A DNA stretch of 64,000 nucleotides from Vezdaea acicularis. Lineage: Eukaryota. The DNA lies in NCBI GenBank assembly GCA_026025075.1, contig JAPEUI010000012.1, positions 124,001 through 188,000 of the forward strand, written 5' to 3'. The notes beneath the pieces were generated by a model. That model did not search any database. It saw only the letters and a list, made by a program, of their open reading frames with translations, and was not told the origin of the DNA. Positions 3,039 to 56,005 of the stretch are shown here, piece after piece (the first letter of the stretch is position 1; each line of letters begins with the position of its first letter). Made by a program: the position numbers and the translations under genes.

Positions 3039-4051
3039 CTAACTCGCAAAGATAACATTCGCTATCGCCTCATGAACCTGCGCCGCCGCCTCTGTCAGAT
3101 TCATCGCTGGTAGGTCCATCGTTGTCAGGTTCGTCGCTGTCAAATTTGTCGCTGCCAGGTCCGTCGGTGTTGGGTTCGTCATCGTCAGGTTCGTCGCCGT
3201 CAGGTCCGTCGCCGTCAGGTTCGTCGCCGTCAGGTTCGTCGCCGTCAGGTTCGTCGCCGTCAGGTTCGTCGCCGTCAGGTTCGTCGCCGTCAGGTTCGTC
3301 GCCGTCAGGTTCGTCGCCGTCAGGTTCGTCGCCATTAGTGTCGTTGCCGTCAGGTTTAACGTCTTCGACGTTGGATAACGCGTCCCAATTACCGTCTTGA
3401 TCGGCATCGGCGCCAGTGCCGTAAATGATATGTTGCTGGCTAGCAGCGACATATCTGGTGCAGCTAGCGAGGCTGTTGTCGTAGATGCGAATGGGGATAG
3501 GGGAGAAGGGACTGGGTCGCCTTGGTAGGCCGATGTTTTGCAGTCTTTGCAGTAATTGAACGTTACCCAGCAATCCGGGTTTGGGAGTTGGTGGGAGCCG
3601 CAGGCAGAGCAGCCGTCGTTTTGGTAGATGGCTCCGAAGCTATGAAAGATGTTAGTGAATGGAACAATTACCCCAATAGAACAGAGACAATGGCATAGAG
3701 TACGCAGGGGGAGCTGTGTAGTAGGACTTACGCGTCCATAATTTCATCATAGCTAGCCCCTTTCTGATACCCCTGAGGACTATAACACCTGAAAATGGCC
3801 GCACAACCCCCCGTCGGGTCATCGAAGATTTTCCCCCAGTCCACATTGCTTGTGTATTGCGTATACGTGCGATTTGCTTGATAGTTCCAAGACGCGCGTG
3901 TGCATAGGCCGCTTTCTTGCAGTAAGAGACCGCACGCGCCGGAGCCATGGCAGTTGTGGTTGCCGACGATCTTTGCGGGTTGGTAGGGAATCGCGGATGT
4001 AAAAGGAATGAATAAGAGAATCGTGAGAGAGGATAGAATATGGAGATGCAT
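3039..4051 (-). CDS. Secreted KP4 killer-toxin-like Cys-rich protein with Thr-rich (TNLTA)n C-terminal tail, ~306 aa; exons 4051-3732 and 3639-3039
   Basis: Signal-peptide-like MHLHILSSLTILLFIPFTSA. NCHGSGACG and GCSACGS..CWVTFNYC resemble the KP4 motifs NCRGSSQC and GCRVCGS..LTVNY; 10 Cys. Intron 3731-3640 (GTAAGT..CACTAAC..CATAG) joins exon 1 in frame to ORF 3039..3452. Confidence 0.75.
3100..3355. repeat. 15-bp coding tandem repeat (GCCGTCAGGTTCGTC)n, near-perfect core ~3185-3330 with degenerate flanks
   Basis: Directly visible; encodes TNLTA units on the minus strand. Confidence 0.95.
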
Positions 4052-5098: not shown

Positions 5099-6249
5099 AG
5101 GAAATGAAAAGGTAGGAGTAAACTCCTGTAAGAGCAGGGTATAAGTTTATTAATGGTCAGCTGGTTGACATGGACTTACCAGGTTTTCCAGATTGCTAGA
5201 CCGGACTCTGAATAGTGCTTTCAGTCCCGGTGACGCTCGCTCTTTATGAGAGTCAGAACATGGGCTCTATATTTAACACCATCGGCAAGCTTTGTCCGTC
5301 ACGGCCAGTCTTGTGGACCTACCCGACCATCCTGGATCAAGTTCTCGTCATAAAAAATCTGGTACAAGACGAGGTCCGCATACATGAGCTTCTGGCTCAG
5401 CACAAATGGGCCTGTGATAGCCAGCCATTAGACGTAATTTGACGTTCTGATGTCTGCAGGAACCGTGCTCTTTATGTCGGCTGCTGTTTTGGGGATGATA
5501 TGAGCCCTTCGTTTCCCAAGAAAGAAGCACTCACGAGACTGATCCTCGGTTGGTTCGCGCATTAGCTGAGGCAAATGTAGCACGGTATCGTGGATAAAAT
5601 TATCAATCACAATATCGCACATGATAGCTATCTGAAAAACCTCGCCCTCTGTCTTGCCATTACAGTGGGGGGTCCTAAGTGTTGTACATTCGCGAAATTG
5701 TGCCTCCTACAATATTCATGCCCTAAGCACGACGATCATTGAATCCATTCATAAGAAACCTAGCTCACAGATTACCTGGGGAGGTCTTCGATATATCAAC
5801 TGAATAAATGCCTTGTCGAGTGCAGGCAGTTCTTAATTCCTGGGTGTTATACCATATATTAGCGGTCTCGTAAATGTACGAAACTTACGACCCCTCACTG
5901 TGTGTCTTGCCGAATTGATCAATCAATTCGAATAACTGTCAAGGTATACCACGTTACTCCATCATTGAAGTAGGCTTTGGCGGAGAAACTAGCTGGCTTT
6001 GGGCCCTCCTACCACTTGTAGAAGAAGTGACGAGTTCACAGTTTCGGAACAGTAAGTCGCCATGATGCGAAGGGTTTACATCTGACGACCGTGGATTCAA
6101 TATTGACTACTAGGAGAGAAAGCGCGAACTCATGGTCGTAGCAAGTGCGGAAGCGATCCGGAAGCCTTCCGTCTGCTCAACTTCTCGATCGGTTAACAAA
6201 CCAATGATACCTTTCTAATGACTATTAACGCCATTTTAAGGAATCCTAT

Positions 6250-6385
6250 GCTTCCGTGGCGCAATGGTAGCGCGTCAGACTTCTATCCATTGAAATCTGA
6301 AGGCTGGTAAGCAGAATCCGCGCGTCTGTTTGCTCATACTTCAAGTGCTAACATATCACAGCGGGTTCGAGCCCCGCCGGAAGTG
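6250..6385 (+). tRNA. tRNA-Arg(UCU) with canonical intron 6286-6294 and a second, spliceosomal-type insert 6307-6361
   Basis: Acceptor GCTTCCG/CGGAAGT+G; D stem GCGC/GCGC; anticodon stem TCAGA/TCTGA with TCT at 6282-6284; variable AGGCT; T stem GCGGG/CCCGC with loop TTCGAGC. A box TGGCGCAATGG, B box GGTTCGAGCC. Spliced length 72 nt. Confidence 0.93.
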
Positions 6386-6410
6386 TTGATCTATAACTTG
6401 ATTTATTTAC

Positions 6411-6415
6411 TTTTT
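6411..6415 (+). terminator. Putative Pol III terminator (T5) downstream of the tRNA
   Basis: First run of 4 or more T after the tRNA 3' end. Confidence 0.55.
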
Positions 6416-6628
6416 GGCTGGTACAACAAGGGGTATGTGACAATTATGCGGGGACGCCGTGCGGAACCAAAATTTTACGCCTTTGGCAACGGTGGAGCGC
6501 AAAGTGGCAGAGCGCGCAGCCGAGCTCGGTCGAAGCTCTCCTGAAGATTTTCTCCCGAACCACCACTCCAGGTCAACGATGCCAATCATCACCACACCAC
6601 CACCACCGACACTCCAATCCTCCCAAAG

Positions 6629-7147
6629 ATGTCAGCTGCCGATGACTCTGCTCTTTCCGCACAACCACAATACACGCGCCCGGCTCCCCTCACCTCTCCC
6701 CGCTCCCTCCGCCAGCTCTCCCTCTTCCTAGCCGGCTCGTCCTTCTTCCTCCTCTCCACCCTCATCACACGACGCTCCCTGACCCGCCGCTACAAAGCCA
6801 GCATCCCGTCCTATTTCACGCCTTCGAACCGGCCCCCTGCCCAGCCGGTCGACGGCGCGGTCGAAGCCTTCGAGGCGCTCAGCGTGGCGAGCGCGAACGT
6901 CGCCAGTCTGGCGGTGATGGGCGTCGGGGGAGTACTGTGGGCGGCGGATATCAGCGGGATGGAGGAGCTAAGACGGAAAGTCAGGGGTGGGCTGGGCGTT
7001 GATGGGAGTGGACGCGGGGAGGGTGACGTGGAGGAGGAGTTTGAGGAGTGGTTGGCTACGGTGCTGCAGCGGAAAGAGGATAAAGAGCTGAGGGCGGATG
7101 GAAGGAGGAAGGGGAGGCCGCGGACGGAGGACGGGAGGGAGAGATGA
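6629..7147 (+). CDS. AIM11: Altered inheritance of mitochondria protein 11-like
   Basis: RSLRQLSLFLAGSSFFLLSTLITRRS..EAFEALSVAS.NV.S..MGVGGVLWAADISGMEELR; two hydrophobic segments, typical fungal Aim11 pattern. Confidence 0.8.
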   Translation: MSAADDSALSAQPQYTRPAPLTSPRSLRQLSLFLAGSSFFLLSTLITRRSLTRRYKASIPSYFTPSNRPPAQPVDGAVEAFEALSVASANVASLAVMGVGGVLWAADISGMEELRRKVRGGLGVDGSGRGEGDVEEEFEEWLATVLQRKEDKELRADGRRKGRPRTEDGRER

Positions 7148-27210: not shown

Positions 27211-29543
27211 TCATATCAACAGAAACGAGGCTGACCCCCCAGCCGAAACGGTCGAAGTATTCCGTTGACTGCCATCGGGCCACTCCATCGCAGGCAAGGG
27301 GCCGAATGGAACGCCTTCAAACGTTTCGAGCATTTTTCTTTTGATTTCCTCAACTCTCGACCACCTTCTATTCAGCCGTTGTCTTCTCGTCTCAAACAGC
27401 TTTTCGAATTGCGATTCCTCCCTTGCAAACCTGGCCTCTAGGCCTTCTGCTTCAGCTCTGAGTTTCTTGTCCAGGCGCGCATACTCCTCTTCCTGCCTAA
27501 TGCTAAGAGATTCCAGCTGCTGTGCTTGCTTGTCGCGAAGGACATTGATGCGTGATTGGTGCATCCGCTCCATATCATCCCGAAGATTGTATTGCTGTCC
27601 AAGCTCTCGCAGGTCACGCTCTGTCACGATACGTCCAGAAGAGGTGTTGCCAGAGTTCAGGCCATCGCAGTAGGCTTCCATATGGCGAAGTCGGATCAGA
27701 CAAGCTTTTCGCTCTTGCTTAAGAGTTTGACGCAGCTCCATTTCAGCGGCGACTTGACGGTCTTCGAGAGTTGTGAGAGTTCGAGTATGCTAGCCAGCAC
27801 GAATTAGAATTAAACATGATATAATCATATCTGTAAAGACTTACGCGGTCTTTCATCTTTTGCTCCTGCGTCACATGACTATCGATCATGTGAACCTTGT
27901 CCTGCCCATGTCTTGTCCAGAGTGCCCATTTCTGCTTTTGTTCAAAGGCGAGGAAGCGATCTCGCTCTTCCACCTGACGTACGCGCAGCCGTGTCAGCTC
28001 TTGGTTCTCTCGACTTCGCTTGACAGCCGCCATGGCCTCTGCTGATGTTGAATACTCTAGTGCCGCCTGCTTCGCTTTATCCTTCGCTTCTTGTATCCTC
28101 CGTGCTTCCTCTGCTGCCTTACGTTGTCGAGCTTGCTCCTCCCCGTTACAGTTGTTCGGGCAGCCAAGTACAGTGTCCCACATAGCACCGCATATATAGC
28201 AGAATTGGGCGTTACATCGGCAAGTCATATGTGCACGACCTTTCGTCAACTCGACCAAGGAGCTACAACTGTAGCATCTTCGCCATCGATGGTTTTCACC
28301 CATCTGCAGCACTGTATCAAGCTCCCAGTCCTATTCAAACATCAGTAACGCGAACAAAGCCCAACCGTAGCGATTGTCCACTCACCGCTGGGCAATCCTG
28401 CCCAACCGCATGCGCATCTTTCTTGCATTGTTTGCAGACTTTTGTATCACACCTCGGACAGTCGACATCAAACGGACGCTTTGGATTCAGCTTTCCTCTC
28501 TTCGGTATGAATTCGCCGCAGAGAATGTTAGGACAGTATATTCTTTCCCTACTAGGAGTCGCATATTGTAGAACACTCTTCATGAATACTTGTTGTTGAT
28601 TTTCATCGAGGACTGATTTGACGATAAAAGCGGGTATGGGCTTGTTGCAACATTTGGGCGGCATCTTTGCTTCGACTTGCATTGCCTGCGTGACCAACAT
28701 TCGTAGACAGCTGTCGCAGTAGATGTGCGAGCAGGGAAGGTTGTGTAGGGCTTTGTTCTTCTTGAAGTCATCTTTGCAGCAAATACAAGACCTAAGTTTG
28801 TATTAGTAGGTAGTACAGAACAATTGGATTGTTGCATCGACTCCTTACTTCACTTCCTCTGCCACAGCCTTGGGCTTGCCGAAGCGAGATATCCTGCCTA
28901 TTCCTCGTTTTATGCTAAAGTAAGACTTCCTTGTCGAAACGGAAAAGATTGATGGAGCAGATGGTGGTGTAAGTATCGTAGGTGATGCAGGTAATGGTGG
29001 CGGCGTCGTGAATATAGATGTCGCGACTACCTCTTGAGCCTGCGCTTGCGCCAGGAATTTTTCGTATTCGGTGAATGATAGAGATCTTCGTAGGGTGTTG
29101 CCTCGCGACCTTGGCGAGGCTGGAATGACGGATTTGGTGGGAACGAATGGATGCCTCGCATTCGAGCTGGGCGCGGTGATATCGGTCGATTGTGAGGTTC
29201 GCGAGGTCGAGCTAGACCGTACATGCGCGGATGTCATGGTCGCGGTGGATGCGGAGTTCATGGGATCCCCAAAGGGCTCGGGCTGAAGGTCCTGCGAGAC
29301 ATCGATGCCTAGGTCGAGAGCCGCTCGATAATTTCCTTCATCAATTGCTTCCTCCGTCTTGTCGGTCGGTAGCTGTAAAACTTCGGTGCGGTAAACCACA
29401 TCATCAAATTCTGATGGATGGGTGACGGTCGACTCGGAACTCTGCATATCGGCCAGCGATCGCTTCTTCTGCTCGATAGCCGCTAGGGCCTCGTTCGGTG
29501 CCGTCGTTTCGGCGAACATCATCGCGACAGCCGGCGCCGACAT
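27211..29543 (-). CDS. RBR (RING1-IBR-RING2) E3-ligase-family protein with C-terminal coiled coil; 4 exons
   Basis: RING1 CICC..LPCSHIYCDSC..PPKCC; IBR YCPNILC..CPRC..CKQCKKDAH; RING2 RRCYSC..HMTCRCNAQFCYICG. Start taken as MSAPAVAM. Confidence 0.9.
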
Positions 29544-44904: not shown

Positions 44905-46016
44905 ATGGGGAACGGTGCCCTCAATGCGAACCCTCCTACGGGAGTGGACATCACCATTACTACCCATGGCTCTGATTGGTATTGGAGTAAGTCTAATCGC
45001 AATACCTCATGTATTGAGGTTGCTAATCCCCTTTTTTTGTATAGCTGTCACTGCCATCATGACCGTAGCTACAATTGCATTCCTTGCAATGTCGTTCATG
45101 CAGCCAAGGACGCGAAGAGTCTTTCACTACATCACCGCTTCTATCACCTTGGTCGCCGCGATTGCATATTTCACGATGGCCTCGAACTTGGGCTGGACAC
45201 CTATCGATGTCGAATTCCAGCGTGGCAACCCTCGTGTCGCTGGCATCAACCGTTCAATCTTCTATGTTCGATATATCGATTGGTTCATCACCACGCCGCT
45301 CTTGCTCTTGGATCTCTTGTTGACTGCTGGTCTGCCGTGGCCCACTATCTTGTTCACTCTTCTCATGGATGAAATTATGATTGTGACCGGTCTTATTGGT
45401 GCATTGGTTCACTCGAGCTACAAGTGGGGTTACTATGTCTTTGGCTGCCTTGCTTTCCTCGCGGTTGTATGGACCGTCGGATGGACCGCTCGCAAGCATG
45501 CCTTCGCACTTGGCGCAGATGTCCACAGGACTTTCATCCAATGCGGCGTCTTGACCCTATTTTTGTGGTTCCTCTATCCGATCGCTTGGGGTCTTTGCGA
45601 AGGCGGCAACGTTATCTCGCCTGACTCTGAAGCAGTCTTCTACGGCATTCTCGATGTGCTTGCCAAGCCAGTCTTTGGAATCTTGCTCCTTCTAGGGCAC
45701 CGCAACATCGACGTACGTCCCCTGCCCTCAAAATAACATGACATGAATTAAGCTAACGTTGCATCAGCCTGCTCGTCTTGGTCTTTCTATCCGAGACTAT
45801 GATGAAGATCCAGCAGCTACTGGCGGTCTACGTTCAGGCGCATACAATGAGAAGCGAGGCGTTGCCAACGGTGCTGGCACCACAGGAACTGGCGCGACAG
45901 GTGGTGTCACTGATGCGACGATCTCAACGGCGACTGGTGCCGATACTGGCACTCATGCAGCAGGTCATCACACTGGCCTAGGAACTGCTCATAATAACAA
46001 TACATCCGCTGTCTAG
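44905..46016 (+). CDS. carO: Fungal rhodopsin (CarO-like), predicted light-driven proton pump; 3 exons
   Basis: ITTHGSDWYW, MASNLGWTPIDVEF, helix C VRYIDWFITTPLLLLDL (DTD motif), helix G YGILDVLAKPVFG with the retinal-binding Lys. Confidence 0.93.
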
Positions 46017-46670: not shown

Positions 46671-48943
46671 ATGAATGATCCAGGCCTAGCAGATGCCATC
46701 GAGCGGGACTCGAAGGCGGTGGAGGGGAACCTCCACGACATGGACCCCGGCCTTGGCGGCGAAGAAGAGGGGGTTGCACACCAGGAAGATGCCCAATTTG
46801 CCAACGAGTCGACCGCGGCGAAGAAGTCTGAGGAAGACTTCTTGTTACCCAAGTAAACAACGCCTCTCTCCAGAAGATTGTACTAAGGGGTTGTCCGCTG
46901 ACACATCGCCATTGCAGTTGGTATTGGATGTTTTCGACGGCTTTCCCCTTGATTGCGGGAACGTTCGGTCCTATGGCGAGCGCGTTCTCCATATGTGCCC
47001 TGGTACAGAGCTGGAGGGTTACAATACCAGACGGCGGGACGGAGGGCCATGGTATTATAACTAGACCTTTCAAATGAACGTTGGATATAGCCCTTTTTGG
47101 AGACTGACTTGTTGTTGCTCACCAGGTATCAAGGTACCCGATCCACCTTGGTATGTAGCTGTCCCCTTTTTGCTCCTGAAAGAAGACTAACGCGTTTCCG
47201 TGCTGGCTAGGCTCCTGGCTATCAACGCCGTTTCTCTTGGGATAGCCTTAACCTCGAACTTGTCCCTCCTGTTGAACATGGCCCGGCGTGTTCCTTTTCG
47301 TATCGCCCAACCAGTAACAATCATTGGCTGGTTTGCTTCATCTTTTCTCTTGATAGGCCTTGTCGGTGCAGCACCAAAGATCAAATTCTCCCTTGCTGAG
47401 GACCGTGCTCTTACGCAGGCCTTCTATTACGGCATAATTGCTGCAGCCTTGTACTTCATCGTGGCGAGCTTGATGCTTTGCACCGCCTGGGGGGCGTATT
47501 ACTCCTATTATCCTCGCGAGTTCCAGCTTACGATGAGCCAAAGGACGTTGATGCTGCAGACCATCATCTTTCTGGTCTACTTACTTGCTGGATCTGCGGT
47601 CTACGCACATATAGAGCAGTGGGAGTTCCTGGATGCCATATTTTGGTCCGACTTTACTTTGCTAACAATCGGGATCGGTGACTACCTCGTACCCAAAACA
47701 CATCTTGGTCGAGGATTGCTCTTCCCATATGCTGTTGGTGGGATTATTATTCTGGGTCTTGTCATAGGGTCCATCCGTTCTTTGGTCCTAGAACGAGCAG
47801 CAACAAAGATGGGAAATAGAATGCTTGAAGTACGACGAGAGAAAGCCATCAAGAAGATGAAGCCAGAAGAAAAGAAGCGATTGGAACCAATCACACACGC
47901 CCAAACACGAGAGGAGAGAGACATTTCAGAACATGAAAGAAGGAAAGCAGAGTTTGAGCTCATGCGTCATCTCCAAGAATCAGCGCATAGAGAACGGAGA
48001 TGGGTTTCTCTACTCATATCGGCGATGGTATGGATGGCTCTATGGTTCCTCGGAGCCCTGACATTCTTTTACTCGGAAAGGAACCAACAATGGAGCTACT
48101 TCCAAAGTTTGTAAGTGCTCAAGCCTAGTGTTTAGTTAGCTTAAAAGCTAATTCAAGTAGGTACTTCGCCTATACATCCCTTTTAACGATTGGCTACGGT
48201 GATTTCACACTCCTCAGCAACTCAGGAAAGCCCTTCTTTGTCTTTTGGTCTCTCTGTGCTGTCCCTGCGTTGACAATTCTCATCAGTATGTTCCCCTGAT
48301 TCCCACTAGTGTTCGAAGCTAACGATGTATTCCAGGCAATATGGGAGATACCCTCATCAAAGGAGTTAAAGACGGGACCATCTGGCTCGGGAAAGTGACA
48401 GTGTTACCTGGCGAGAGTCCTATCATGGACACGCTCAGGCATGGCGCCTCTAAGGTCACTAGGCGGCGTTTCACAGATCGTGATGACCATCAAGATAAAG
48501 AAAAACAACTCGTCGACCCCCCGAGTGAGACTGAATCCGAGGAGATAGAATTCGAGGCTCTCCAGGTGAATATAGCCCATCGCCATTACCTCATAGCGAA
48601 AGAGATCAGGAGAGTATTAGAACATGTCCACAGTGGTCCTCGACGAAAATACTCCTATGCTGAGTGGACGTGGTATTTACGACTTATTGGCGAGGATGAG
48701 GCTTCTGAAAGGACGCATCGTGCACCCATGGTGAACCCTAAACACGGCGTTCAGGATGCAACTACTCATGGCGAAGGTGACGAAGTCAAACAGTGGAGCT
48801 GGATGGGCCACCGCAGCCCTCTAATGGGTGGAGAAAGTGAGTCGGAGTGGATTTTGAGCAGGTTAACAGTCACACTCGAAGAATTGCTGCATAAGCATCA
48901 TCTTGAGCATCGAAAAGACTGCGATAAAAAGCCATCATCGTAG
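46671..48943 (+). CDS. TOK1: TOK-family two-pore-domain outward-rectifier K+ channel (multi-exon)
   Basis: WMFSTAFPLIAGTFGPMA, LTMSQRTLMLQT, pore 1 TLLTIGIGD, pore 2 SLLTIGYGDF, SNSGKPFFVFW; about five introns. Confidence 0.92.
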
Positions 48944-53703: not shown

Positions 53704-56005
53704 ATGGATTCCGCCAAAACTCCTGAGGTCAATACTTTTGATACACAACCTATGGTTTCCGTGTTGAATGACTTGATAAATCAAAATGGTTTGACCGTGG
53801 GACCTGAATGGACTGAAAAGACCGAATTCGATTATGCTAGATACAACTCTGGCTCAGGTGCAAATGGTCAAACTTCATCTGGTGTTACTTTTGCGAACGA
53901 AGACAATGTGCCATGGGCTGCAGAGGCTGAAAAGTATGAGTTTGTTGGTGACGAGGGTGACATTGGTCCACCTCACCCAGCACTCGAAGCGGTTCTGTTT
54001 ACATCGGAATTCCTAATGCGCACTGGTCTTGCATTTGATCAGTAAGACACAAGTTTCATTGACCATTTTTAAACGTGCTAATAATCGATAGATTGAACTC
54101 AATTCGTGTAACTGAAGAGGGAACTGTCAAAGTTGCACCTGTTCGGGAGGTTCGTATTCCATACGTTTTATTACAACTTTACGCTGATTTGTCCATCTCA
54201 TAGTTTGCCGACGCCGGTTTACATCCGCAAATGCTCGCCAATATTAAGCTGTGCAAGTATGAAAAACCAACACCCATTCAGGCATATTGCCTCCCGGCAA
54301 TTCTGAAGGGCTACGATGTGATTGCTTGTGCACAGACTGGTGAAGTTTCCTTCAACAAAAACTTGATGAGATAATTGAAATTGGCTAATACTTTCAAAAT
54401 CTAGGCTCTGGTAAAACGGCCGCTTTCCTCATACCCACCTTGTCCAAGTTGATGGGAAAGGCCCGTGAGCTTGCTGCACCACGCCCCGACCCGACCATCC
54501 CAGCAACTTTTGGTAAAATGTACCGCGCAGAGCCTCTTATCCTCATTGTTGCGCCGACCAGAGAGTTGGCAACTCAGATCTTCGATGAGGCACGTCGATT
54601 CTGTTACCGGTCCATGCTGCGCCCATGTGTCGTCTACGGAGGAGCGCCCGTAAGTAGTCAGAGAGAAGAATTGCTTAAAGGCTGCGACATCCTCATTGGT
54701 ACCCCCGGTCGGCTCTGTGATTTCATGAATAAGCCTCATGTTCTCTCCATGAGTCGTCTCAAGTAAGTAAGATTTTACTCAATTGGAATGTAATAGAGCT
54801 AAGAGAGAAAATTAGGTACACAATTATCGATGAAGCCGATGAGATGTTGAAGTATGATTGGAATCATGAGTTGGAACAGATCATGTCAGGTGGTGGTATG
54901 TCTCACCAATTGAGCTTCTTGTCCACGCTTCTTTGTGTAGGAGTCTTTAAAACAACCTCTGACATTCTACTAACTAGACACCAATGACGATGCTGATCAT
55001 GTGTACATGATGTTTTCTGCTACTTTCCCAAAGGGTGCTAGAGCGCTGGCTAAGGGATATATGTCTCAGGAGCACGTTCGGTTTGTCATGGGCCGAGCTG
55101 GGAGCTCTCACATGAATGTGAAGCAAGGAGTACGTAGTTTATTCATTATGAGTTCCAGTGCTCTGCATATCTAATCTCTCACAGGTCGTTTTTGTTGAGC
55201 AGAATCAAAAGAACCAGGCTTTGTATGACCTTCTGTTCGCAAATCCACCAACAAGGACAATGATTTTCGTAAACACAAAGCATACAGCCGACCAGGTCGA
55301 CGATTACCTATTCAACCGCGGTCTTCCAACTACATCCATTCATAGTCAGCGCACTCAACGAGAGCGTGAAGACGCCATGTAGGTCTATGTAATCTTAGCT
55401 CTTTCGCTATGAGTTAACCGCTCGCTAGTCGTTCGTTCCGCTCAGGCCAATGCCCAATTCTGATCACCACTAGCTTAGGAGCTAGAGGTATAGACATCAA
55501 GAACGTCATGCATGTCGTCAATTATGACCTTCCAAGCGTGGAAAATGGAGGAATTGGAGATTACATTCATCGTATTGGTAAAGACTGTCAGATACTATCC
55601 ATTTGCATCAACAGCTAACGTACTTTAGGGCGCACGGCTCGTATTGGGAATACAGGCCTCGCAACTTCATTTTTTAATGAACGTGATGAAGAGCTTGCTC
55701 GTACACTTGTGAAGGTCCTGCTCGAAACTAAACATAAGATTCCGGACTTTCTGGAACAATACGCCCCCATTGAAGGAGAAGCCATCGAGTTTGATGACGA
55801 TAAGTCGGATGATGAACTATATGATGAAGCCAAGTCTGATGATCAAAGGTCTGCCAATGGCCTCCATAATCATGCTAAGTCAGATGACGATATGTCTGAT
55901 GACGATATGTATGATGATGCAAAGTCGGAGGAGAAGAAGGGTAATGATGGAGACACAATCGCTGAGGGTACTGAGCGATATGCTGGAGGCGTTGGCGACG
56001 TCTAG
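53704..56005 (+). CDS. DEAD-box RNA helicase, Ded1/DDX3-related divergent paralog; about 8 introns
   Basis: Q motif [51 protein letters not shown]; acidic C-terminus. Confidence 0.92.

Follow-up and report, generated by a model that had tools for sequence, protein, structure and literature searches.

A candidate spliceosomal intron in the T-stem of a tRNA-Arg(UCU) gene from a lichen-allied ascomycete

Organization of the tRNA-Arg(UCU) locus

The stretch analysed here, referred to as the window, comprises 64,000 nucleotides of Vezdaea acicularis (assembly GCA_026025075.1, contig JAPEUI010000012.1, positions 124,001 to 188,000 of the forward strand). Its positions 6250 to 6385 hold the subject of this study, a transfer RNA (tRNA) gene for arginine with the anticodon UCU that is interrupted by two inserts of 9 nt and 55 nt. 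A first-pass annotation of the window had proposed that the longer insert is a spliceosomal GT-AG intron, and its letters and coordinates were borne out by a second reading of positions 6250-6385. The gene and its parts are arranged as follows.

6250..6385, forward strand: tRNA-Arg(UCU) gene of 136 nt including two inserts, 72 nt without them; based on Rfam RF00005, ARAGORN on the trimmed sequence and 20 homologues
6250..6285, forward strand: 5' exon, part one, with the acceptor 5' strand, the D-arm, the anticodon stem 5' strand, the anticodon TCT (6282-6284) and A37
6286..6294, forward strand: canonical intron of 9 nt between positions 37 and 38, the exact register uncertain by one A; based on the Rfam alignment and the homologues
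6295..6306, forward strand: 5' exon, part two, with A38, the anticodon stem 3' strand, the variable loop AGGCT and G49
6307..6361, forward strand: 55-nt GT-AG insert between G49 and C50 in the T-stem 5' strand, candidate spliceosomal intron
6307..6312, forward strand: donor GTAAGC, read from the sequence
6347..6352, forward strand: branch-site motif GCTAAC, with 6351 as branch A, 10 nt before the final base of the insert
6359..6361, forward strand: acceptor CAG, which is TAG in all four related assemblies compared
6362..6385, forward strand: 3' exon with C50-G53, the T-loop, the T-stem 3' strand, the acceptor 3' strand and the discriminator G

The 55-nt insert lies in sense orientation relative to the tRNA and follows G6306, the final base of the 5' exon. 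Its position between nucleotides 49 and 50 is not the canonical intron site 37/38, which is occupied by the separate 9-nt insert. The Rfam model RF00005 covers 6250-6385 at model positions 1-71 with 45.4 bits (gathering score 29), and its alignment presents the two interruptions as extra bases of the anticodon loop and as a long stretch that separates the variable loop from the T-stem. An excision that is shifted by one base to the left (6306-6360) yields the identical product, and only the register 6307-6361 provides the termini GT and AG.

The default version of ARAGORN called no tRNA in the 64-kb window, but a standard tRNA-Arg(tct) with four paired stems was recognized once the 55-nt and the 9-nt insert had been removed in silico. 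This outcome before and after trimming agrees with two earlier proposals, namely that standard tRNA finders could miss the gene and that exact removal from GT to AG, together with that of the 9-nt intron, restores a complete 72-nt cloverleaf, which is moreover collinear with the homologues described below. The intron option of ARAGORN reads the native locus as a tRNA-Ser(act) that would have an intron of 53 nt and a D-stem of 3 bp; this candidate was rejected, as the reading with two inserts matches 20 homologues. Rfam detected no second tRNA in the 64-kb window, either at the gathering threshold or at E <= 1.

Distribution of the two inserts among homologous tRNA genes

Homologues from other lineages were retrieved by scanning metagenomes for a 22-base segment from the D-arm and anticodon arm, which provided 20 loci with 13 distinct tRNA-Arg(UCU) sequences. 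The 22-mer itself is identical across all 20 loci. The trimmed tRNA of the window is collinear with each of them and shares the G1-U72 pair with several. A MAFFT alignment shows a gap of 55 columns in 20 of 20 homologues exactly opposite to GTAAGC...CACAG; none of the 20 metagenomic loci has an insert in the T-arm between positions 49 and 50, and a further metagenome scan for the two exons separated by 40-70 nt returned no match. The situation differs for the shorter insert, which had been described as a canonical tRNA intron. This assignment stands, as 17 of the 20 homologues contain an intron of varying length at the same 37/38 site and only three have none (L002, L015 and L017). The comparison thus identifies the uninterrupted T-arm as the normal state of tRNA-Arg(UCU) and the 55-nt insert, to judge from these sequences, as a lineage-specific addition.

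Rfam gives 68.8-69.5 bits to the three intronless homologues, 52.1-55.5 bits to 16 that have one intron and 45.4 bits to the window gene with its two inserts. Because these scores form a ladder that follows the number of inserts, the tRNA body of the window can be regarded as intact, with a complete cloverleaf, the anticodon TCT and the conserved bases of the D- and T-loop. One further locus (L004, 608-694) scores 35.2 bits, aligns to model positions 8-63 only and has a mismatched acceptor 3' strand; it is probably a decayed tRNA-Arg(UCU) copy.

Splice signals of the 55-nt insert

The first-pass annotation had compared the insert with the messenger RNA (mRNA) introns of the window in its donor, branch site, acceptor, size and spacing. 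We defined candidate mRNA introns by the signals GTRNGY, CTRAY and YAG, by an open reading frame (ORF) across the joined flanks and by a frame that is broken if the intron is retained. The window contains 17 such candidates (15 of them not nested) with a length of 49-128 nt and a distance of 8-28 nt between branch site and acceptor. The likeness is upheld by this range of spacing and by four candidates of exactly 55 nt (27790-27844, 28331-28385, 45713-45767 and 55130-55184). The donors of the candidates comprise GTAAGT, GTACGT, GTGAGT, GTACGC, GTAGGC and similar hexamers, and the insert has the branch-site string AGCTAAC in common with the candidate introns 45713-45767 and 48286-48335. Its acceptor CAG is the first AG past the branch site, as there is no AG in 6353-6359.

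The combination of signals is rare. A loose test (GTRNGY, then CTRAY with its A 5-30 nt from the end, then YAG) was passed by five of the 127,890 55-mers on both strands of the window, namely by the insert and by the four ORF-supported candidate mRNA introns, and its strict version (GTAAGY and CTAAC) by the insert alone. Among random 55-mers with the composition of the window, 5 of 300,000 passed the loose and 1 of 300,000 the strict test. A chance match of the three splice signals thus has a probability of about 2 in 100,000, or on the order of 1 in 30,000 if the two equivalent excision registers are allowed for. Since such signals are rare among all 55-mers of the window as well as among random ones, the insert is by its sequence a spliceosomal-type intron. 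Its donor, its branch site, the first YAG, a length within the local range and the exact restoration of the host gene are, at the DNA level, the properties of a U2-type intron.

A different route of excision was considered in view of the unusual position. The insert might be a non-canonical intron of the type that the tRNA splicing endonuclease cuts in archaea, Cyanidioschyzon merolae and nucleomorphs, in which case the splice signals would be coincidental. A bulge-helix-bulge (BHB) motif, which we take to consist of two 3-nt bulges, a central helix of 4 bp and outer helices, was not found at the insert junctions in 16 combinations of register and offset; the best central helix has three of four pairs, and the outer helices are weak. 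The endonuclease is therefore left without an evident handle on the insert, because no register gives a central helix of 4 bp. The idea draws on the available parts of a review (PMC4090602), which describe T-arm inserts that are excised from tRNA genes of nucleomorphs, as well as ectopic introns of C. merolae that depend on a BHB motif. The same parts state that the fungal endonuclease measures from the mature domain of the tRNA, and this domain is disrupted by the insert. Together with the missing BHB motif and the required coincidence of about 2 in 100,000, this makes excision by the endonuclease very improbable.

Presence of the insert in related assemblies

The protein-coding neighbour of the tRNA provides information about the host.

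6629..7147, forward strand: AIM11, ORF of 172 aa, 243 nt downstream of the tRNA and on the same strand; PF28272, UniRef 'Altered inheritance of mitochondria protein 11'

Its best named relatives, with 58-68% identity, belong to Sclerophora, Cladonia, Hypocenomyce, Lignoscripta, Patellaria, Vezdaea and Stereocaulon, and because of these relatives of AIM11 the host can be placed by sequence among the lichen-allied ascomycetes of Pezizomycotina. A fungal transcription-factor domain is encoded elsewhere in the window.

We compared assembled DNA contigs from X1, X2, X4 and X5, four of the seven DNA runs that contain part of the locus; these four stem from three studies, and the holders of the locus are mostly moss metagenomes. 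All differences given here are those listed for the contigs; the listing leaves out positions up to 30 nt from contig ends and a further 138 differences. The insert is carried by all four runs, with a divergence of about 2% to 14% from the window in their flanks. Three contigs span the complete gene, insert included, without a break: 6229-6796 in X1 with 13 differences, 5846-6796 in X2 with 16 differences in 951 nt, and 6149-6486 in X4 with 24 differences in 338 nt. In X5 the gene is distributed over three pieces, one contig ending at 6313 and another one starting at 6360, and a third contig lacks 1 nt at 6337, has 1 nt more after 6343 and is changed at 6359. As assemblies of related fungi in four runs carry the insert, it is on this evidence no artefact and predates the split of the compared lineages, and its reality in sequence data, presumed by the first-pass annotation, is thus attested. 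Nothing was found in favour of an assembly artefact or of a chance resemblance to an intron; contigs from four runs of three studies contradict the former and the signal statistics the latter, and of all explanations considered this one has the slimmest chance.

The sole listed change in a splice signal is a replacement of C by T at 6359, which converts the acceptor CAG into TAG and hence preserves the YAG consensus; it is present in X1, X2, X4 and X5. The window is accordingly the odd one out at this position, with C where the four related assemblies have T. The 5' exon appears to be spared as well: the listing for X5 has 19 substitutions and four insertions or deletions in 6076-6238 and none in 6239-6283, a stretch with 34 nt of the 5' exon. 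At the upstream rate of 19 substitutions per 163 nt, the probability of a 5' exon without differences is about 0.015, a rough estimate for the listed differences only. Taken together, the comparison suggests constraint on the insert. The summed contig depth of X5 rises to 19 over 6264-6310 and to 10.5 over 6311-6357, compared with about 5-8 in the flanks, and may be due to tRNA paralogues or to a second haplotype.

Transcription signals and folding of the precursor

The elements that are relevant for transcription and folding are located as follows.

6257..6267, forward strand: A-box-like internal promoter element, tRNA positions 8-19
6364..6374, forward strand: B-box-like internal promoter element GGTTCGAGCCC, positions 52-62, intact inside the 3' exon
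6411..6415, forward strand: T5 run, candidate terminator for RNA polymerase III (Pol III), 26 nt 3' of the gene
6314..6321, forward strand: intron segment GAATCCGC, predicted to pair with 6361-6368 in the unspliced RNA

The two boxes were assigned by what we take to be the box consensus. Runs of four or five T (T4-T5) follow the homologues at a distance of about 0-45 nt, and the distance of the T5 run in the window falls within this range. The A- and B-box-like elements together with the T5 run point to Pol III as the polymerase of this gene; alternatively, the precursor may originate from read-through of RNA polymerase II (Pol II). The first-pass annotation had noted that the insert is free of T4 runs and could hence be read through by Pol III. 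The observation is correct, as the longest T run in the insert, and in the gene, has three T. T4 runs are absent from 11 of the 15 candidate mRNA introns as well, and for this reason a T4-free insert says little about transcription by Pol III.

Folded alone, the insert is not unusual (z = -0.56; 48 of 200 shuffles are as stable), and the stability of the 136-nt precursor lies somewhat above that of its shuffles (z = -2.06). In the minimum free energy and the centroid fold of the precursor, 6314-6321 pair with 6361-6368, which comprise the acceptor G, the T-stem 5' strand and the T-loop; by our rough reckoning, the probability that such an 8-bp match arises here by chance is about 0.06. In the model, this pairing would compete with the formation of the T-arm before splicing.

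These folds bear on the idea that the insert is retained in an RNA with another role, either a tRNA-like molecule with an oversized variable region or an element that is bound by TFIIIC or Pol III and acts on the AIM11 promoter. The Rfam alignment closes the T-stem with the last G of the insert, which is thereby formally placed in the variable region so that a cloverleaf is possible, and the gene is situated just upstream of AIM11. The lack of unusual structure in the isolated insert argues against such a role, the perfect splice signals would be left unexplained, and to our knowledge a variable region of 60 nt is far beyond that of any known tRNA. We regard a functional retained insert as improbable.

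A tRNA precursor with two introns and two splicing machineries

We favour, with a probability of about 0.5, the interpretation that the locus is a working tRNA-Arg(UCU) gene from which the spliceosome would remove the 55-nt intron and the tRNA endonuclease the 9-nt intron. In the most likely sequence of events, Pol III would transcribe the precursor from the A and B boxes and stop at the T5 run. The T-stem 5' strand of this precursor would be split after G49 by a U2-type GT-AG intron of 55 nt, and the spliceosome would recognize the donor GTAAGC, the branch site GCTAAC and the first AG downstream of it. The intron would leave as a lariat, and the joining of G49 to C50 would allow the T-arm and the L-shape to form, while the 9-nt intron at 37/38 would be cut and sealed by the tRNA splicing endonuclease and a ligase in the ordinary way. 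What we infer from the DNA in this scheme is that the gene is transcribed, that the spliceosome splices the RNA, that the product functions and how the intron was gained; the same applies to the earlier proposal that the tRNA needs the spliceosome to mature.

The intron would represent a lineage-specific gain in a lichen-allied ascomycete, and a plausible origin is that it was reverse-spliced into an abundant RNA, which was then reverse-transcribed and underwent recombination. No similar copy of the intron, as expected for an introner family, was found elsewhere in the 64-kb window (best local alignment scores 10-11). An origin of the insert from duplicated tRNA sequence was rejected, as the best match between intron and exons is a 7-mer that is equalled or beaten in 368 of 2000 shuffles.

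Several points weigh against a working two-intron gene. With CTG|C, the exon sequence at the junction corresponds to a proto-splice site in part only, and the predicted pairing of 6314-6321 with 6361-6368 might hinder splicing. Pol III transcripts are spliced inefficiently in animal cells. The relatives that carry the insert are all close, with flanks that differ by no more than about 14%. The expectation of the first-pass annotation that the splice signals are kept in relatives holds for the acceptor, which stays YAG in four of four assemblies; the donor and branch site in X4 and X5, like the 3' exon, lie outside the readable part of the difference listing. The absence of exon differences in X2 is not significant, given that about 1.5 would be expected in 81 nt. 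An intact tRNA-Arg(UCU) paralogue could make the interrupted copy dispensable, and its exons could stay intact by gene conversion from paralogues. A published natural spliceosomal intron in a tRNA was not found in the literature covered, most subscription journals being outside this coverage. Finally, inserts in the D or T arm of eukaryotic tRNA genes are mostly taken as pseudogenes, with the exception of nucleomorphs and C. merolae, at least in the sections available of the review PMC4090602.

Some of these points also fit a disabled copy, the leading alternative, which we consider possible but less likely than a working gene. In this case one tRNA-Arg(UCU) gene among several would have received the insert, be it a real spliceosomal-type intron or a mobile element that resembles an intron; the transcript of this gene would remain unspliced or would be spliced too rarely, other copies would supply the tRNA, and the exons would still be intact through recency or gene conversion. 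This explanation accords with the customary classification as pseudogenes, with the closeness of all relatives that share the insert, with the extra depth of X5 over 6264-6310 (19 versus about 8), which could reflect paralogous copies, and with the degenerate locus L004, which documents that decayed tRNA-Arg copies do occur in fungi. It is at odds with the intact state of every signal and every stem in the window, with the acceptor change in the relatives that preserves YAG, and with the 34 nt of the X5 5' exon that are free of listed differences (p about 0.015). Furthermore, no joint from 6306 to 6362 that skips the insert was present among the listed contigs of the four runs, a point of little weight, since contigs can attest that a sequence is present but not that it is missing. 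An inactive Pol III gene would also have no reason to keep its insert free of T4 runs, which again counts for little in view of the T4-free majority of local introns (11 of 15).

Comparison with known introns in structural RNA genes

The first-pass annotation had referred to spliceosomal introns in U6 RNA of yeasts and in ribosomal RNA (rRNA) of ascomycetes, and both precedents could be confirmed in the accessible text of PMC5855946 and PMC8527467. The sole U6 gene of Schizosaccharomyces pombe, which is transcribed by Pol III, contains an intron which the spliceosome excises, and an origin by reverse splicing has been proposed for it (Tani and Ohshima 1989, 1991, cited in the accessible part of PMC5855946). 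A list of non-coding RNAs with spliceosomal introns from 2018 comprises U6, U2, U5, U1 and rRNA, and tRNA is not named in the portion available (PMC5855946). The likeness between the tRNA-Arg intron and those in U6 of S. pombe and some other yeasts is considerable: each is a lineage-specific GT-AG intron with a branch site in a critical region of a short, conserved Pol III RNA, and the origin that has been proposed is reverse splicing with subsequent reverse transcription. However, U6 occupies the spliceosome's active site, which accounts for its encounter with an intron, whereas a tRNA does not. Splicing of U6 has moreover been shown by experiment while the tRNA-Arg intron is known here from DNA alone, and the 9-nt intron of the tRNA-Arg precursor would have to be removed by an additional splicing system unrelated to the first.

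Another example is provided by the nuclear ribosomal DNA (rDNA) of lichen-forming and other ascomycetes, which contains spliceosomal introns (Bhattacharya et al. 2000, cited in the parts available of PMC8527467 and PMC5855946), introns whose removal by the spliceosome is accepted, and yeast is able to remove one of these rDNA introns from rRNA that is transcribed by RNA polymerase I (Pol I), according to the same part of PMC8527467. These are likewise short spliceosomal introns in an abundant structural RNA that is not made by Pol II, and they occur in the same broad fungal group as the host. The setting is nevertheless different, with rRNA, Pol I and a repeated array on the one side and a 72-nt tRNA, Pol III and one locus on the other.

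Among tRNA introns, those of nucleomorphs, C. merolae and archaea resemble the 55-nt insert in their location outside 37/38, the T arm included, in the possibility of more than one intron per gene and in the proven excision of some of them. They differ by a size of 3-24 nt in Guillardia or by boundaries of the BHB type, by being cut by the endonuclease and by the absence of the succession of GT, branch site and AG; both comparisons refer to the sections available of PMC4090602. The canonical intron at 37/38 is represented in the same gene by the 9-nt insert, whereas the 55-nt insert at 49/50 breaks the domain that serves the endonuclease as a ruler. Koehrer, Vogel and Domdey are said to have reported in EMBO J in 1990 that an engineered yeast tRNA gene with a pre-mRNA intron was spliced by the pre-mRNA pathway. 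That construct was artificial and its intron reportedly lay in the anticodon loop; if the report is as described, a Pol III tRNA precursor can be a substrate of the spliceosome.

The tRNA-Arg insert fits the pattern of ectopic introns, with splice signals in the conserved T-stem, absence from all 20 homologues and presence in close relatives. It would thus be of the same kind as the ectopic spliceosomal introns of structural RNA genes, with tRNA as a new type of host.

Implications of a spliceosomal intron in a tRNA gene

Two recent accounts of tRNA introns regard these and spliceosomal introns as distinct systems with distinct substrates and make no mention of spliceosomal introns in tRNA, as far as the available portions of PMC12530127 and PMC10275265 extend. 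If the two-intron interpretation is true, tRNA-Arg(UCU) would be a natural tRNA that needs two unrelated splicing machineries and would contain the first spliceosomal intron shown in a tRNA. The spliceosome of lichen-allied fungi would then reach the products of all three nuclear polymerases, and reverse splicing could seed introns into any abundant RNA, which has a bearing on how new introns are gained. If the intron is spliced, the reach of the spliceosome would be extended to the commonest Pol III product, and the gene would provide a compact natural substrate for the question whether splicing needs coupling to Pol II. If this were the sole tRNA-Arg(UCU) gene, the decoding of AGA would require the spliceosome. 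Genes of this type escape standard tRNA finders or are misread by them, so that genomes could appear to lack an essential isoacceptor. Even a dead copy would still be a dated example of an intron that landed in a gene other than one for mRNA.

Further features of the window

About 350 nt upstream of the tRNA, positions 5662-5901 comprise a 240-bp element that resembles a miniature inverted-repeat transposable element, with terminal inverted repeats of 34 nt (82% complementary). It matches many contigs of X1, X2 and X5 at 80-90% identity with a summed depth of 100-400, and because of these numerous matches and this depth it represents a multi-copy repeat in the compared fungi. Positions 3039-3573 contain overlapping ORFs on both strands that derive from a short tandem repeat with about 10 repeats (translations such as SGSSP or DGDEP); the tract is microsatellite-like and probably not coding in all listed frames. 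A match to the archaeal C/D-box family sR30 at 55790-55841 is weak (23.3 bits, gathering score 38, E = 0.13) and probably due to chance; it is situated in a region that has candidate introns at 54896-55184.

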